Shown here: positions 3,740 through 23,150 of the stretch, one piece after another
Layout: each line of letters starts with the position of its first letter
Position numbering within the stretch: the stretch's first letter is position 1
From: a virus
Lineage: Duplodnaviria; Caudoviricetes
Virus record (IMG/VR): IMGVR_UViG_3300030376_003861
Location: 1-26,672 of that record
Length of the DNA: 26,672 nucleotides
Strand: one strand, 5' to 3'
Program-made: the position numbers and the translations under genes
Notes under the pieces: model-generated
Told to the model about the DNA's origin: nothing
Seen by the model: the letters and a program-made list of their open reading frames with translations, nothing else
Databases searched by the model: none

Positions 3740-3767
3740 TTGACAAAGAGTAAACCCCTAGTAAATT
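3740..3767 (+). promoter_or_regulatory. Promoter with operator site 3 in its spacer
   Basis: TTGACA 3740-3745 and TAAATT 3762-3767; AAGAGTAAACCCCT (3746-3759) lies between the boxes. Confidence 0.65.
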
Positions 3768-4711: not shown

Positions 4712-5027
4712 GAACAAAGCCAAGGGTGATAAAGCCGAAAGAGAAGCCGCCGAACTTCTAACTAAAGTGACGGGCTATGAATGCAAAAGAACTTTAGCGG
4801 CGGGTATCCCTGACGATGTAGGGGACATTATTGGCATTCCTGATTGTGTTATTCAGGTCGCTAACTATAAGGATACTTCTACCGCATGTTTGAAGAAACC
4901 TAGAGAAGTAGAAAACCAACGAGAAAACGCGGGTGCAAAATACGCGGCCTCTATGGTGCGATGGCGTGGAGGGCATTGGCGCGTTGTTTTAACGGTTGAG
5001 CAATTCGCCAAGTTCATAAATGGATGA
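4704..5027 (+). CDS. Holliday junction resolvase, archaeal Hjc-like PD-(D/E)XK
   Basis: KAKGDKAEREAAELL, GDIIG and VIQVANYK; size and order match Hjc-type phage resolvases, with Q in the usual ExK position. Confidence 0.7.
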   Translation: MNKNKAKGDKAEREAAELLTKVTGYECKRTLAAGIPDDVGDIIGIPDCVIQVANYKDTSTACLKKPREVENQRENAGAKYAASMVRWRGGHWRVVLTVEQFAKFING

Positions 5028-5817
5028 ACTACGCCTTATTGATACCTTTTCAGGTATTGGCGGTTTTAGTTATGCCGCTGAAAAACTTGTTGGAGGATTC
5101 AAAACGGTTGCATTTGTCGAATGTGAACCCTATTGCCAAAAGGTATTAAAAAAACATTGGCCCGACGTTCCTATTTATGAAGACATCAAAAGTTACCGAC
5201 CAGAACCATATTCAGCAGAAATTGTTTGCGGGGGATTTCCTTGCCAGTCAATTTCAAACGCGGGCAAGCGCGAAGGGATCACAGAGACTTCAGAATCTGG
5301 TTTGTGGTACGAACTCTACAGAGTCATTTGCTTATTACGACCGCGATACGTCGTGTTGGAAAACGTCTCAGCAATCCTTTCTAGAGGACTTGGCGTCGTT
5401 CTCGGAAACTTGGCCGAGGCAGGCTATTGTTGTGAATATGCGTGCATACCAGCGTCATATATTGGAGCCTGTCACCAGAGGGACCGGATTTGGATTATTG
5501 CCTACCCCGAGGGCAGCAAAGGGAATGGAAATGAGACTATCGAAAAATATGGCAAAGCTAGAACACAAGAAATATTTAGAGACAGAAATGGCGGCAAGAA
5601 TACATACACATGGAGAAACACACCTTATGGACTCGAAGGAGGTTGGCGAAAATGGAGTGTTAAACCCGTCATTTGTAGAACTTCTAATGGGGTTCCCTCT
5701 GGGGTGGACAGAACTAAAAGATTAAAGGCGTTAGGAAATTCCATCGTGCCGCAGGTTGCAGCGATACCACTACAAAGGGTTTTAGATTTGCATAATGTTA
5801 CTATTCGTAAATATTAA
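5020..5817 (+). CDS. DNA (cytosine-5) methyltransferase, large (alpha) subunit
   Basis: Motif I FSGIGG, IV GGFPCQ, VI ENV, VIII QRDRIW and X LGNSIVPQVA; motif IX is not visible in this frame. Confidence 0.92.
   Translation: MDELRLIDTFSGIGGFSYAAEKLVGGFKTVAFVECEPYCQKVLKKHWPDVPIYEDIKSYRPEPYSAEIVCGGFPCQSISNAGKREGITETSESGLWYELYRVICLLRPRYVVLENVSAILSRGLGVVLGNLAEAGYCCEYACIPASYIGACHQRDRIWIIAYPEGSKGNGNETIEKYGKARTQEIFRDRNGGKNTYTWRNTPYGLEGGWRKWSVKPVICRTSNGVPSGVDRTKRLKALGNSIVPQVAAIPLQRVLDLHNVTIRKY
5177..5725 (+). CDS. Overlapping small (beta) subunit of the C5 methyltransferase carrying motif IX; start uncertain
   Basis: 183-codon open +1 frame nested in the MTase gene, with LLPTPRA and LNPSFVELLMGFPLGWT (motif IX-like E.LMGFP). 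Confidence 0.75.
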   Translation: MKTSKVTDQNHIQQKLFAGDFLASQFQTRASAKGSQRLQNLVCGTNSTESFAYYDRDTSCWKTSQQSFLEDLASFSETWPRQAIVVNMRAYQRHILEPVTRGTGFGLLPTPRAAKGMEMRLSKNMAKLEHKKYLETEMAARIHTHGETHLMDSKEVGENGVLNPSFVELLMGFPLGWTELKD

Positions 5818-5822
5818 ATAGT

Positions 5823-5847
5823 AGGGGTTTACCCTTTACGCTATGCT
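5823..5847 (+). promoter_or_regulatory. Operator site 4 and -10 box of cassette 1
   Basis: AGGGGTTTACCCTT 5823-5836; TATGCT 5842-5847. Confidence 0.65.
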
Positions 5848-5886
5848 TCAATAGTCAACTCGACCCGTGGAGACACGGACTAATAA

Positions 5887-6057
5887 ATGACTTCTTCAAC
5901 TCTTTCTCGATTGAACAAAGCGCCTCTACTTAAAAAGGCACAATCAATGGAGACAAGACTAAACAGACTCGAAAGTTTAATTCAAGTTTTGTTTGTTGTT
6001 ACAGGATCAAGCGTCTTTGCAGCATTCATTTCAAACATGAATCTTTCAGTTCTTTAA
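5887..6057 (+). CDS. Cassette 1 small protein (56 aa) with hydrophobic C-terminal helix
   Basis: Manual ORF MTSSTLSRLNKAPLLKKAQSMETRLNRLESLIQVLFVVTGSSVFAAFISNMNLSVL between the leader hairpin and a terminator. Confidence 0.65.
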   Translation: MTSSTLSRLNKAPLLKKAQSMETRLNRLESLIQVLFVVTGSSVFAAFISNMNLSVL

Positions 6058-6066
6058 ATACACCCC

Positions 6067-6089
6067 ACCCCCTTCATAGGGGGTTTTTT
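6067..6089 (+). terminator. Intrinsic terminator
   Basis: ACCCCC-TTCATA-GGGGGT followed by a T run. Confidence 0.8.
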
Positions 6090-6097
6090 ATTGCAAC

Positions 6098-6180
6098 GCC
6101 GGGGAGCCTGACGCCTGAGAGAAAGGGCTGAAAGTTATAACCAAGACAGGGCACGAATTGGTCGTGATCCATCCCCCGGT
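6098..6180 (-). ncRNA. Candidate structured small RNA 1
   Basis: GC-rich intergenic island whose ends pair (CCGGGGG/UCCCCGG on minus), with inner stems CACGA/UCGUG, CCUG/CAGG and GCC/GGC; -10-like CATAGT at 6190-6185. Confidence 0.45.
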
Positions 6181-6235
6181 TTTCACTATGTATAGGTATT
6201 GAATATTAATTGTGAATATATTGTTACGTTCTCAT

Positions 6236-6261
6236 AGGGGTCTACCCTTACTATGTATAAT
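6236..6261 (+). promoter_or_regulatory. Operator site 5 and -10 box of cassette 2
   Basis: AGGGGTCTACCCTT 6236-6249; perfect TATAAT 6256-6261. Confidence 0.7.
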
Positions 6262-6292
6262 AAAGAAGTAAACAAAGCGGAGACGCTACCAA

Positions 6293-6481
6293 ATGAAAAC
6301 TCCTTCTACTTCTCTAAAGCAAATCAAATGTGCAAGAGGCTATACATACAACGTATTGAAAGCCGAAAAGCATATTACATGGGGACTTGAAAGAGTGGTT
6401 TACACTTGCCGCAAGCCAAGAGGTAAAGTTCTTTATAACATCGTCGGATATGAGAACGGCACTTTCTCAACCGCTGCCTAG
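6293..6481 (+). CDS. Cassette 2 small basic protein (62 aa)
   Basis: ORF-track ORF lying between the leader hairpin and a terminator. Confidence 0.7.
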   Translation: MKTPSTSLKQIKCARGYTYNVLKAEKHITWGLERVVYTCRKPRGKVLYNIVGYENGTFSTAA

Positions 6482-6488
6482 ACCACCC

Positions 6489-6512
6489 GGCCCCGAAAGG
6501 GGTCTTTTTTTT
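6489..6512 (+). terminator. Intrinsic terminator
   Basis: GGCCCC-GAAA-GGGGTC followed by T8. Confidence 0.88.
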
Positions 6513-6527
6513 GCCTGTTCATACTAG

Positions 6528-6610
6528 AAAACCCCTCGACGAATGCCAAGAGGTTTAATAGATACCCATCCCTAGGTGTTTAACGCTTAAGTCGCATGAG
6601 TTAAGGTCAA
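6528..6610 (-). ncRNA. Candidate small RNA 2 with its own terminator
   Basis: Minus-strand TAGACT -10 (6620-6615); 3' 12-bp stem AAACCUCUUGGC-AUUC-GUCGAGGGGUUU whose three G-U pairs form only on the minus strand. Confidence 0.45.
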
Positions 6611-6678
6611 TTCAAGTCTAGCCAATAAAAGCACTTTTAATATCTTCAAATATTACAATTATATTAATATGACTTAGT

Positions 6679-6712
6679 AGGGGTTTACCCCTTAGAAAAT
6701 ATTCACTATACT
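6679..6712 (+). promoter_or_regulatory. Operator site 6 and -10 box of cassette 3
   Basis: AGGGGTTTACCCCT 6679-6692 (perfect arms); TATACT 6707-6712. Confidence 0.7.
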
Positions 6713-6741
6713 TAAAGAGTAGTTCACCGGAGACGGTACCA

Positions 6742-6870
6742 ATGGTAACAGTTAAACAAATTCTTGAAGGTTTAGCAGAGTTTCAAAGCTACGACGACAA
6801 AGGTTTCCCCTCACATCTAAAAAGCTTTAAAAGTAAAGTTGATTGGATCAAGCAACAAAAGGAGAGCTAA
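6742..6870 (+). CDS. Cassette 3 small protein (42 aa)
   Basis: Manual ORF MVTVKQILEGLAEFQSYDDKGFPSHLKSFKSKVDWIKQQKES between the leader hairpin and a terminator. Confidence 0.65.
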   Translation: MVTVKQILEGLAEFQSYDDKGFPSHLKSFKSKVDWIKQQKES

Positions 6871-6876
6871 ATCACC

Positions 6877-6900
6877 GAGGGCCGCAAGGCTCTTTTTTTT
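6877..6900 (+). terminator. Intrinsic terminator
   Basis: GGGCC-GCAA-GGCTC followed by T8. Confidence 0.85.
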
Positions 6901-6912
6901 GCCTAGAAATAA

Positions 6913-6965
6913 TAAACCCACTACGCGGAATCAATAGCGGGTATTAGGTGACGGGGATCGCCTTT
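6913..6965 (-). ncRNA. Candidate small RNA 3 (two hairpins)
   Basis: Minus-strand TAAAGT -10 (6974-6969); hairpin AGGCGA-UCCCCG-UCACCU, then terminator-like ACCCGCUA...UAGUGGGU-UUAUU. Confidence 0.35.
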
Positions 6966-7111
6966 AATACTTTAGACATACTATTTTTTCTTAGCAGCTC
7001 TAATTGTTTTTGCTGCTGTTTGATATTTCTACAATGTGAACAATCACAAATCAATATTTCTTGCCTATCCATCTAATTAATATCTAGACATAGTAAAAGG
7101 ATAAGCAGCCC

Positions 7112-7303
7112 ATGAAAAAGATCCTTGATTCAATAGGAAAGCTTTTTATATACGAAAGCCCTGAACCTCTAGACGGTATGAAAAGATTCTTGCGGGATAA
7201 AACAAGCCGACAATTAAGGGTGCTTGCAGAGACTCCTAGCCACTATTCAAAGACCATCATGATCAATATGATTATTGACGAAATAAAAGGATCTAATCGT
7301 TAG
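7112..7303 (+). CDS. Hypothetical protein (63 aa)
   Basis: AAGGA RBS upstream of ATG; ORF track. Confidence 0.65.
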   Translation: MKKILDSIGKLFIYESPEPLDGMKRFLRDKTSRQLRVLAETPSHYSKTIMINMIIDEIKGSNR

Positions 7304-7505
7304 CAATACGCCAATACCTATTTTTCCATTTCTCGTATATTTCTAATTCTTCTTTTAACCGCTTATAAGTCATCACCTCGGTATGAAGGCCCGTGAACGT
7401 GTTTGCGTGCTTATGTGTTTTATCGTCTCTATTGTCCAAACGGTAAAGCTCATTAATGTAATCGTTCCTAGCGGCGTTCTCTGCTACTGAAATTTGTTTA
7501 ATCAT
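7293..7505 (-). CDS. Hypothetical protein (70 aa)
   Basis: ATGA-coupled to the upstream minus-strand gene. Confidence 0.65.
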   Translation of the reverse strand: MIKQISVAENAARNDYINELYRLDNRDDKTHKHANTFTGLHTEVMTYKRLKEELEIYEKWKNRYWRIAND

Positions 7506-7657
7506 TTTGGATTATCGTTTACTTTAGTTTTCATTTTCTGCAAAGTCTCAAAGACTAATTGAATAACTGAGTTGCTTTTTAGTTTTGACGCGCCAACAAT
7601 TTCCGAGGCAAGCGCCACGGCACACCAAAAGATTGGGCTGGAAAATAGTTCTGTCAT
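7502..7657 (-). CDS. Small membrane protein (51 aa), holin-like candidate
   Basis: Manual ORF MTELFSSPIFWCAVALASEIVGASKLKSNSVIQLVFETLQKMKTKVNDNPK with ATGA overlaps at both ends. Confidence 0.65.
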   Translation of the reverse strand: MTELFSSPIFWCAVALASEIVGASKLKSNSVIQLVFETLQKMKTKVNDNPK

Positions 7658-7818
7658 CTAGTGTTTTTCATAGGGCAGCGTTCTTCTAATCTTGCGGTTG
7701 TTTGCTCAAGGCGATTTAAGCGCGTGAAGATTTCAACCTTTAACTCTGAATTTTTGCGGGCCTGCATAGCTAGGTAAACGAAAGCACCTGAAACAATGGC
7801 CGCGCCAATCTCGGTCAA
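7654..7818 (-). CDS. Small TM plus coiled-coil protein (54 aa), holin-like candidate
   Basis: Manual ORF from TTG: MTEIGAAIVSGAFVYLAMQARKNSELKVEIFTRLNRLEQTTARLEERCPMKNTR; ATGA overlap with the next gene. Confidence 0.6.
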   Translation of the reverse strand: MTEIGAAIVSGAFVYLAMQARKNSELKVEIFTRLNRLEQTTARLEERCPMKNTR

Positions 7819-7871
7819 AAGACATTTTTAGAAGCTAAGGTGATATTAATCATTCTTTACTATGGCGGCAT

Positions 7872-8336
7872 ATGGAAGAGAAAAAGCAAGAAAAGAAGAA
7901 AAACTTTATTCAAAAATTGCAGGAAAAAATACCTGATCGCGACGAACAGTTTGAATACGTCGGAATTGGGGTGCGTTTGCTCGTCGTTTTTTGGTCAGGC
8001 GCATTGGTTACATTGAATTATTTACCTAAGATCCCCGGCCTAACAAGTGGAGAAAAGCAAGATATAACTTTTCCGGCAAGTCTCTTAGCATCTTCCCTAG
8101 CTAGTTTCGGATTAGATAAGAACGCTAAGAAAAAAGGTGATGGAACATTTGAAGTACCGCCAGAGGATAAGCCAATGACGAAAAAAGAAATGCAAGCGAT
8201 GATGAGTGAATCAGGCGGGAACTATCAAACAATTCGGGTGGTAACTCCAATCGAAATTAAAGGCGCCGAAGTAGTAAAAACTGATCCGATTTCAGGTAAA
8301 GAAATAGACCCACAAACAGGCCGCTTAATCCAATGA
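7872..8336 (+). CDS. Membrane protein (1-2 TM), unknown function
   Basis: Hydrophobic segments VGIGVRLLVVFWSGALVTLNYL and ITFPASLLASSLASFGL. Confidence 0.8.
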   Translation: MEEKKQEKKKNFIQKLQEKIPDRDEQFEYVGIGVRLLVVFWSGALVTLNYLPKIPGLTSGEKQDITFPASLLASSLASFGLDKNAKKKGDGTFEVPPEDKPMTKKEMQAMMSESGGNYQTIRVVTPIEIKGAEVVKTDPISGKEIDPQTGRLIQ

Positions 8337-23117: not shown

Positions 23118-23131
23118 AAGGGTAAACCCCC
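23118..23131. promoter_or_regulatory. Operator-like site 7
   Basis: AAGGGTAAACCCCC in the 55-bp gap between the tail tube and chaperone genes. Confidence 0.6.
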
Positions 23132-23150
23132 TCAACAATAAAAGCAATAT

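Follow-up and report, generated by a model that had tools for sequence, protein, structure and literature searches.

A putative RNA hairpin with a GAGA loop in the leaders of exchangeable small-gene cassettes of uncultured marine siphoviruses

Why would a phage place the same kind of small hairpin, capped by a GAGA loop, directly before the start codons of three consecutive small genes? The question is raised by the IMG/VR virus record IMGVR_UViG_3300030376_003861, 26,672 nucleotides (nt) long with 40% G+C, which is taken here from end to end and is called the window. An initial annotation of this DNA had described hairpins A, B and C (Table 1) in the leaders of three small open reading frames (ORFs), each with an invariant G-GAGA-C top enclosing the Shine-Dalgarno (SD) sequence and with covarying outer stem pairs, and had regarded them as an undescribed cis-regulatory RNA element. 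The three hairpins, their coordinates and their distances from the ATG were found to be exactly as described, and, judging from a comparison with related phages, the leader very probably contains a structure selected at the RNA level.

Leader hairpins in the window and in related phages

Both strands of the window together contain 135 GAGA sites, among which hairpins A-C are the sole GAGA-loop hairpins with at least four Watson-Crick pairs, and each of them is kept in the minimum-free-energy fold of its leader predicted with ViennaRNA; the energies in Table 1 refer to the isolated hairpins. The hairpin count by itself is not above chance (the average over dinucleotide shuffles is 0.92, and three are reached in 28 of 300), and the z-scores of the whole-leader folds are weak (-1.64, -0.75 and +0.30 for leaders A, B and C, respectively). 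What exceeds chance is the placement of the hairpins and their conservation, not their number. All three are localized on the sense strand, just 5' of start codons, in three consecutive units composed of a predicted promoter, a small ORF and a terminator-like site, each hairpin lying 28-35 nt downstream of a copy of the motif TAGGGGTYTACCC and 4-8 nt upstream of the ATG of an ORF of 42-62 amino acids (aa). A covariance scan with Rfam (positions 5000-8000, both strands, E-values up to 10) revealed nothing at the hairpins, which indicates that the element is not listed there; the only matches were below the gathering cut-offs, i.e., McaS (20.4 bits versus 42, positions 6916-7011) and the serC leader (14 versus 35, positions 5037-5080).

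Relatives were gathered by means of DNA patterns and of the phage helicase, which yielded five close records (G001-G005, among them the complete 38.5-kb record G003), 18 IMG/VR loci, and 80 metagenome loci with 36-92% helicase identity. A 14-base promoter word matched 119 stretches of IMG/VR, nearly all of them by chance; six had GGAGAC at most 90 nt downstream, and among these L025, L054 and L118 were relatives. The search for the promoter word combined with GGAGAC gave 48 stretches, 10 of them with a related hairpin leader; L158 contained the promoter only.

Approximately 15 different stems were found across these relatives, all of them still paired. The type A leaders of close relatives differ only by the stem variants CGCGG and TCGTG, both forming G.U pairs, the type B hairpin is identical in G001-G005, and type C occurs also with the arms GCCG/CGGT (GCCG-GAGA-CGGT in G002, 22 nt from its ATG). 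Distant phages of higher G+C content add the stems GCCG-GAGA-CGGC, AGCCG/CGGTT, AGCTG/CAGCT, GCTG/CAGC, CGGTGCCG/CGGCGCTG, GGCCCTG/CAGGGCC and GCGG/CCGC. All four single-step variants found in orthologous leaders are G.U-compatible.

The association of pairing with gene starts was examined using all distinct GGAGAC contexts of the family loci, taken irrespective of pairing, with a start defined as an ATG that opens a frame of 30 codons or more. Stems of 4 base pairs (bp) or longer were present in 18 of the 29 contexts located 3-18 nt before such a start, as opposed to 13 of 167 elsewhere, and the same stem test gave only 1 of 152 and 2 of 154 for the ordinary SD words GGAGG and AGGAG, respectively. 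Across all 256 tetraloops, GAGA hairpins most often precede ORF starts (31 of 45), with 11 distinct stems versus 10 for the next loop, in counts that are not independent since the genomes are related. These results agree with the covariation that the initial annotation had claimed within a single genome, i.e., with a structured sense-strand leader element whose stems vary yet stay paired; the refuting outcome named in that annotation, homologous leaders with GGAGAC but without the pairing, was not borne out, the variants being either G.U-compatible or re-paired. Moreover, IMG/VR was searched for GGAGAC-NNNN-CTGTTCATG with a free 5' arm, which resulted in 63 matches and 55 distinct contexts. 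Fifty of these contexts form 0-2 of the four free pairs, and the five forming all four come from the known family, this search providing no new stem type and no sign of the motif beyond this lineage.

A search of 0.95 Mb of family loci with a covariance model built from 15 seed leaders gave 62 matches, 33 of them distinct. In the seeds as well as in the distinct matches, pairing at the four inner positions is complete (100%), and each position shows 2-4 types of pair. Within the distinct matches 90.9% of the cells pair, in comparison to 59.9% after shuffling and at most 42% with the partner slid, and the covariation score is 0.81 versus 0.23; because the seeds and the matches were selected for pairing or fitted to it, the percentage paired is overstated, and the information lies in how varied the pair types are. 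In high-G+C relatives, a palindrome GGGG-GAGA-CCCC is conserved inside the helicase coding region (L205:11382-11419, and likewise in L206, L208-L210, L212, L214 and L289); its model score is low (14.5 bits), and it may have arisen by coincidence from the coding sequence.

The leaders of the relatives also made it possible to distinguish the features that define the motif. In the sampled loci, 25 distinct regions lie upstream of one orthologous small gene whose product starts with MTPLERL or similar residues. Seven of them contain (T)GCC-GAGA-GGC(A), in some cases with just 3 bp, another seven a 9-bp stem with a 7-nt loop, and four TTGCCG-GCGA-CGGCA; GCCG-GAGA-CGGC and CGGGA-GAGA-TCCCG were found once each, two regions (those of another small gene) have GGGA-GAGA-TCCC, and three were unaligned at the start codon. 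The hairpin of the MTPLERL-type leaders is situated 14-23 nt before the ATG and 5-7 nt past a -10-like hexamer, which corresponds to the predicted +1, and its start is constant whether the loop is GAGA (closed by C-G, G-C or A-T), GCGA or 7 nt long. Such a constant start with a varying loop fits the need for a stable 5' hairpin, not for a particular SD, and some of these leaders possess a separate downstream SD (AGGAG in the GGGA-GAGA-TCCC type, GAGG in L201).

Conservation extends to the bases 3' of the hairpin, where A is present in 18 and C in 28 of the 33 distinct model matches (giving AC), and where the low-G+C clade has the extended flank ACCAAT and the high-G+C clade has (A)CTGTTC. Leaders with the hairpin 4-10 nt from the ATG all have G-GAGA-C and no other SD-like word before the ATG, so that GGAG is the only candidate SD in the three cassettes of the window. 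Closing pairs other than G-C are almost confined to hairpins at least 14 nt from the ATG, the exception being TGCC-GAGA-GGTA in L238 (8 nt), which may be a chance match. In some H-type leaders (L232:1960-2062, L230:12070-12167, L235 and L241:6900-6998), a second hairpin of a different kind, GGAGGCG...CGCCTCC, lies some 25 nt before the GAGA hairpin, where the predicted +1 falls.

The motif is a variable 4-9 bp stem with a GNRA loop (nearly always GAGA) and a conserved, clade-specific 3' flank, present in small promoter-to-terminator cassettes. The invariant closing G-C pair and the enclosure of the SD, both emphasized in the initial annotation, hold within the three leaders of the window but not in the family, which contains the other closing pairs, loops and spacings described above. 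Enclosure of the SD is not the defining trait of the motif; the part of the former proposal that stands is that of a likely cis-regulatory RNA absent from Rfam.

Cassette architecture and exchange of the small genes

The components of the three cassettes are summarized in Table 1. Only the promoter of cassette 3 passed the consensus promoter scan. For cassette 1, the -10-like hexamer would place the transcription start near 5862 and the beginning of hairpin A at about +3/+4, and hairpin B would begin at about +9 or about +1, depending on which of the two hexamers (TATAAT or AGAAGT, respectively) is used. With -10-like hexamers located 16-17 nt past the -35-like element, the starts of the three hairpins would fall at about +1 to +7.

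Table 1. Leader hairpins, cassette components and promoter motif copies in the window.
Feature	Position	Strand	Remarks
Leader hairpin A, CCGTG-GAGA-CACGG	5865-5878	+	-6.9 kcal/mol; ends 8 nt before ATG 5887; R1 model match 24.3 bits
Leader hairpin B, AGCG-GAGA-CGCT	6276-6287	+	-4.3 kcal/mol; followed by ACCAA-ATG; ends 5 nt before ATG 6293
Leader hairpin C, ACCG-GAGA-CGGT	6726-6737	+	-4.3 kcal/mol; followed by ACCA-ATG; ends 4 nt before ATG 6742
Cassette 1, promoter/operator motif TAGGGGTTTACCC	5822-5834	+	By inspection, apparent near-palindrome AGGGGT-TT-ACCC(C)T with -35-like TTTACC
Cassette 1, predicted -10-like AATAGT	5850-5855	+	16 nt past TTTACC; 8/12 matches, under the promoter-scan threshold
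Cassette 1, small ORF 1	5887-6057	+	56 aa, hydrophobic C-terminus; no family match; homologue behind the same leader in G003
Cassette 1, intrinsic-terminator-like site	6067-6092	+	Stem 6067-6084, then T run
Cassette 2, promoter/operator motif TAGGGGTCTACCC	6235-6247	+	From the motif count
Cassette 2, two alternative predicted -10-like hexamers	6256-6269	+	TATAAT 6256-6261; AGAAGT 6264-6269, 17 nt past TCTACC; not in the promoter scan
Cassette 2, small ORF 2	6293-6481	+	62 aa; no family match
Cassette 2, intrinsic-terminator-like site	6489-6512	+	Stem 6489-6504, GAAA loop, then T run
Cassette 3, predicted promoter	6678-6712	+	TAGGGGTTTACCC 6678-6690; TTTACC, 17-nt spacer and TATACT over 6684-6712; 9/12 consensus matches
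Cassette 3, small ORF 3	6742-6870	+	42 aa; no family match
Cassette 3, intrinsic-terminator-like site	6877-6901	+	Stem 6877-6894, GCAA loop, then T run
Cassette 3 entire, insertion/deletion unit	6623-6934	+	In the window and G001; absent from G002-G005 (homology blocks reach to 6622 and start again at 6935)
Copies of TAGGGGTYTACCC	645-657, 814-826, 3748-3760, 23120-23132	-	
Copies of TAGGGGTYTACCC	5822-5834, 6235-6247, 6678-6690	+	

The seven copies of TAGGGGTYTACCC compare with 0.48 expected in the window, and none of 100 shuffles reached this number. As a near-palindrome (AGGGGT-TT-ACCCCT) overlapping the -35-like TTTACC, the motif looks like an operator common to seven predicted promoters on both strands. 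Its counterparts at the same places in relatives are GGGTATACCC, GGGTTAACCC or GGGGTTGACCCC, and in the high-G+C clade a GGCGCGCC palindrome is found instead, in the promoter spacer. A further word, TTTTTTGCCT(A/G), which belongs to the conserved linker, is present right behind the terminators of cassettes 2 and 3 (6507-6517 and 6895-6905) and once further downstream (7057-7067).

Comparison of the window with G001-G005 revealed blocks of 85-97% identity, each comprising a terminator, a promoter and a leader. Their ends fall at the start codons, at 6292 (ATG at 6293), at 6744 (ATG at 6742) and at 5895, and the homology resumes at 6479/6482 (the stop codon ends at 6481) and at 6878. When the small ORFs of the window are compared with loci L192-L197, ORFs prove to be exchanged exactly from start codon to stop codon between such terminator-promoter-leader linkers. 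Unrelated ORFs stand behind one type of leader, i.e., four after the identical B leader (in six phages), two after C and three after A, the C leader of G001 preceding an ORF different from that of the window. Among the products of the hairpin-led ORFs, no family was recognized with Pfam and PHROGs for the scanned ORFs of the window, nor with Pfam for 19 ORFs of relatives, apart from one sub-threshold match.

A fourth, divergent cassette, composed of a GGGA-GAGA-TCCC-ACCAATT leader and a 44-aa ORF, is present in G001 and G005 (L192:4766-4943) and missing from the window. On the minus strand of positions 6058-6190, the window has retained a divergent promoter region and a CACG-ACCAATT-CGTG hairpin despite the missing cassette, the fold of this minus-strand segment being no better than that of shuffles (z-score -0.65).

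The remaining genes of the record were assigned with Pfam and PHROGs. The minus-strand half encodes a lambda-like head and tail module, i.e., capsid, tail tube, tape measure (with the lambda C-terminal domain), gpM/L/K/J-like proteins and fibres. On the plus strand there are genes for a RepA-like helicase (979-2832), an exonuclease, a RusA-like resolvase and a C5 DNA methyltransferase (5020-5817), as well as many small ORFs. The helicase contains an AAA_25 domain and weak matches to LexA/MarR-type winged helices at residues 388-442, under the curated cut-offs, and its start is overlapped by an ORF (828-1220) conserved in G003.

The nearest cultured kin of the helicase are those of Synechococcus phages S-CBS3 (48% identity) and S-CBS1 (39%), and remoter relatives were found on contigs of Cyanobium and Vulcanococcus metagenome-assembled genomes; at the DNA level, similarity to deposited phages is confined to the methylase. 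Two marine metagenome runs contain at least half of the words sampled from positions 5000-7400. Based on the helicase kinship, these contigs and the marine runs, we infer that this lineage of uncultured marine siphoviruses has a picocyanobacterial host. Scoring of 150 candidates per genome in three picocyanobacterial genomes (about 9.3 Mb) gave chance-level matches to the covariance model only, four of them at E-values of at most 1 and seemingly in G+C-rich coding regions, and the best match in phage S-CBS3 (12 bits), likewise at chance level, lies within structural genes.

Possible roles of the hairpin

We tentatively favour, at somewhat less than an even chance, a cis-acting hairpin of the 5' leader that protects the messenger RNA (mRNA) and tunes the SD and the translation start. 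Situated near the 5' end, such a hairpin would shield short monocistronic messages from 5'-end-dependent decay and, in short leaders, would hold the sole SD-like GGAG half-paired, thereby setting the rate of translation. Stabilization of mRNA by 5' hairpins, ribosome-binding sites and bound proteins is mentioned in a passage of PMC3997798. Judging from the -35/-10-like hexamers, with promoters and start sites being predicted, the first base of the hairpin would fall at about +1 to +8; presumably it forms in the RNA, delays its decay and, in short leaders, contains the functional SD. In favour of this reading are the predicted 5' position, the fact that orthologous leaders retain a stable hairpin at the predicted +1 with a varying loop, and the textbook function of 5' hairpins and SD-like sites near the 5' end. 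A role of GGAG as the SD of short leaders is favoured by the lack of any other SD-like word there and by unstructured GGAG, which in the same phages peaks at an SD-like spacing and so indicates that the hosts use SDs.

Several observations weigh against a hairpin acting by protection and SD pairing. The predicted 5' overhangs reach 6-8 nt in several leaders (cassette 3, F and H types), which is longer than the few nt tolerated by 5'-hairpin protection in Escherichia coli. In some H-type leaders the GAGA hairpin persists 6 nt before the ATG although another hairpin already occupies the predicted +1; 5' protection consequently cannot be its whole role. GAGA is near-invariant and the 3' flank is clade-conserved at any distance from the ATG, although plain stability would accept any stable loop, which points to sequence-specific recognition. 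Where GGAG lies in the hairpin it is 9-15 nt away from the ATG, most often 12, which is longer than the peak at 8-9 nt for unstructured GGAG in the same phages. Finally, a comparison of G.U with A.C on permissively extended stems showed no clear asymmetry (10 versus 12 in leaders), and the overstated pairing of the seeds and model matches should be counted here as well.

The near-invariant GAGA, the flank, the long spacing and the H-type leaders favour instead a close rival, in which the hairpin and its 3' flank are the operator of a trans-acting RNA-binding protein of the phage or the host, coordinately controlling translation or decay of the cassette mRNAs in the manner of the MS2/PP7 coat-protein or T4 RegA/gp32-type translational operators. 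On balance we consider it unlikely. It would account for a GAGA loop kept over approximately 15 stems and three kinds of closing pair, for a single-stranded, clade-specific flank kept in paralogous leaders before unrelated ORFs at 4-23 nt from the ATG, and for H-type leaders that retain the GAGA hairpin despite another 5' hairpin; moreover, in short leaders the hairpin ends 4-10 nt before the ATG, so that a protein bound to it would obstruct the 30S subunit. However, no candidate protein emerged, since the scanned ORFs of the window match no RNA-binding family in Pfam or PHROGs and the 19 hairpin-led ORFs of relatives gave nothing in Pfam. One clade of orthologous leaders has the 7-nt loop and another has GCGA, so that no single recognition code covers all leaders, and the conservation of the flank could also stem from recombination within linkers.

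A related and broader view, possible but doubtful in our estimation, is that the GAGA hairpin together with the ACCAAT/CTGTTC box constitutes a common RNA operator of a phage cassette regulon, read by a putative phage or host factor. Such a factor would switch all exchangeable early-gene cassettes together, through a translation block, decay or terminator read-through, and any ORF inserted between the linkers would at once fall under the timing control of the phage. The logic would be like that of nut/N or RegA operators, with unrelated sequence.

It is improbable that the hairpin is an antitermination signal, i.e., a boxB/nut-like RNA hairpin or an ops-like hairpin of non-template DNA that loads a factor onto RNA polymerase for read-through of the cassette terminators. 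Such a signal would fit short promoter-proximal stems with a GNRA-type loop, one in every unit, units ending in intrinsic-terminator-like sites, a linear conserved box adjoining the hairpin, and a phage with lambda-like tail genes, and RfaH is reportedly recruited by a small hairpin of non-template DNA. Yet a boxA-like word (consensus GCTCTTWA, at most one mismatch) is present in none of the three leaders, its total in the window being 55 versus 57 expected, and no scanned ORF of the window matches a NusG/KOW family. In a crude scan for basic stretches of 18 residues in ORFs of 35-160 aa, which for the window covers only part of a genome, no N-like arginine-rich N-terminus stood out either in the window or in G003. 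Lambdoid genomes carry two nut sites each, whereas three to four copies per genome occur here, each on its own one-gene transcript, and in short leaders the position of the hairpin tracks the ATG.

Distinctly improbable, too, is a purely DNA-level role, in which the hairpin would be a protein-binding palindrome or a piece of linker DNA kept alike by recombination, as in PeSL-type exchange, with no function of RNA structure. The similarity of the phages is interrupted precisely from the ATG to the stop codon, which makes the leader the 3' edge of a recombining linker, and different phages have almost the same B and C leaders before unrelated ORFs. Recombination accounts for such identity, but not for approximately 15 different complementary stems around an asymmetric GAGA centre, nor for an orientation that is always sense relative to the downstream gene. 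Single-step variants of the core pairs give G.T and never A.C, a weak point since the model favours G.U.

A mere SD (GGAG) with flanks that pair by chance, inherited through duplication of one leader and with a functionless structure, is highly improbable and already disfavoured: the unexceptional number of hairpins in the shuffles (28 of 300), the short stems and the weak leader z-scores would suit it, but the pairing survives changes on both sides at all four inner pairs, the enrichment of stems is specific to GGAGAC among SD words, and orthologous leaders keep a hairpin that contains no GGAG at all (GCGA loop, 7-nt loop, C-GAGA-G).

If the motif acts as a cis-acting leader hairpin, as proposed, an operator-bearing promoter, the leader hairpin and a terminator would together form a compact, portable expression signal, by which a marine cyanophage lineage may plug in and swap small accessory genes. 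It would also provide a defined RNA element relevant to mRNA protection and SD control in picocyanobacteria, whose translation signals are poorly understood. The motif is a candidate entry for an RNA-family library and a marker for locating cassette genes in metagenomic phage contigs, and a dedicated binding factor, if there is one, would represent a new switch at the post-transcriptional level, in phages of which none has been cultured.

Comparison with known systems

Among the papers listed in our literature searches, none has a title or abstract that describes this motif. A class akin to the preferred reading comprises the 5' stabiliser stem-loops and 5' STAB-SD elements (E. coli ompA, papA and bla with an added hairpin; the Bacillus aprE leader and cryIIIA STAB-SD), which resemble the leaders described here in a short stable hairpin at or near the (here predicted) 5' end, often purine-rich and SD-like, before short monocistronic messages. 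The differences are that the GAGA loop and the 3' flank are conserved in sequence here, which is not required of stabilisers, that the 5' position is predicted only, and that several leaders place the hairpin beside the ATG and not at the 5' end.

The initial annotation had also pointed to boxB-type and CsrA-type systems, neither of which is supported in that form. The leaders resemble lambda nut sites in a GNRA-type loop, a stem of 4-5 bp and a predicted promoter-proximal position in the leader RNA of a lambda-like siphovirus, upstream of terminators. The canonical lambda boxB loop is a GNRA-like pentaloop, whereas the hairpins here are true tetraloops, occurring in many copies, each on a one-gene transcript; no boxA resembling GCTCTTTA adjoins the hairpins in the three leaders at up to one mismatch, and no obvious arginine-rich N-like protein appeared in the scan. 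As in CsrA/RsmA targets, a GGA stands atop a short hairpin overlapping the SD in the three leaders of the window. However, the first G is paired, the GGA being made up of the closing G and the first two bases of the loop, each leader has a single site, although CsrA targets usually carry several, and the variants closed by C-G or A-T or with a GCGA loop do not present GGA; among 40 scanned ORFs of the window, which represent phage proteins only, none matched the CsrA family.

The GGAG near the start codons of small phage genes, which are probably early genes, recalls the targets of T4 RegB as well, where it forms part of the SDs of early genes. The RegB/S1 site is given in a passage of PMC1702504 as an 11-nt single-stranded GGAGRAYARAA, structured GGAG sites being resistant to cleavage. 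Cleavage of the RegB type was rejected, as GGAG is located here within a stem-loop and is followed by the G+C-rich arm (ACACGG, ACGCT or ACGGT), not by an A-rich stretch. The one paper found that combines the GAGA tetraloop, the SD and phages concerns the sarcin-ricin loop of 23S rRNA (C-GAGA-G), which has a GAGA tetraloop and, as in the E and G type leaders, a C-G closing pair. The leaders have no bulged G or flexible region beside the loop, and the resemblance, limited to loop and closing pair, is treated as a coincidence.

The surroundings of the hairpin, as distinct from the hairpin itself, conform to mobile cassettes of the PeSL or moron type, conserved promoters and terminators being found at the borders of insertions, deletions and replacements. 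PeSL (promoter-early stem-loop) motifs of T4-like phages, composites of terminator and promoter, are described (PMC4122927; PMC2839356) as small conserved regulatory sequences on either side of variable ORFs, at the sites where close relatives differ by insertion, deletion or replacement. Here, too, conserved regulatory blocks flank variable ORFs and break at the ATG and the stop codon, but the PeSL stem-loop is a terminator upstream of the promoter, whereas the present hairpin is located downstream of the promoter, in the 5' untranslated region (UTR), and has a covarying stem, and the phages are siphoviruses, not T4-like. Cassette 3 likewise resembles the morons of lambdoid phages, promoter-gene-terminator units that are present in some relatives and absent from others. 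The element as a whole belongs to a known kind, the 5'-UTR regulatory hairpin; what is new is a lineage-wide covarying motif, absent from Rfam, set in an unusually clean architecture of cassette exchange.

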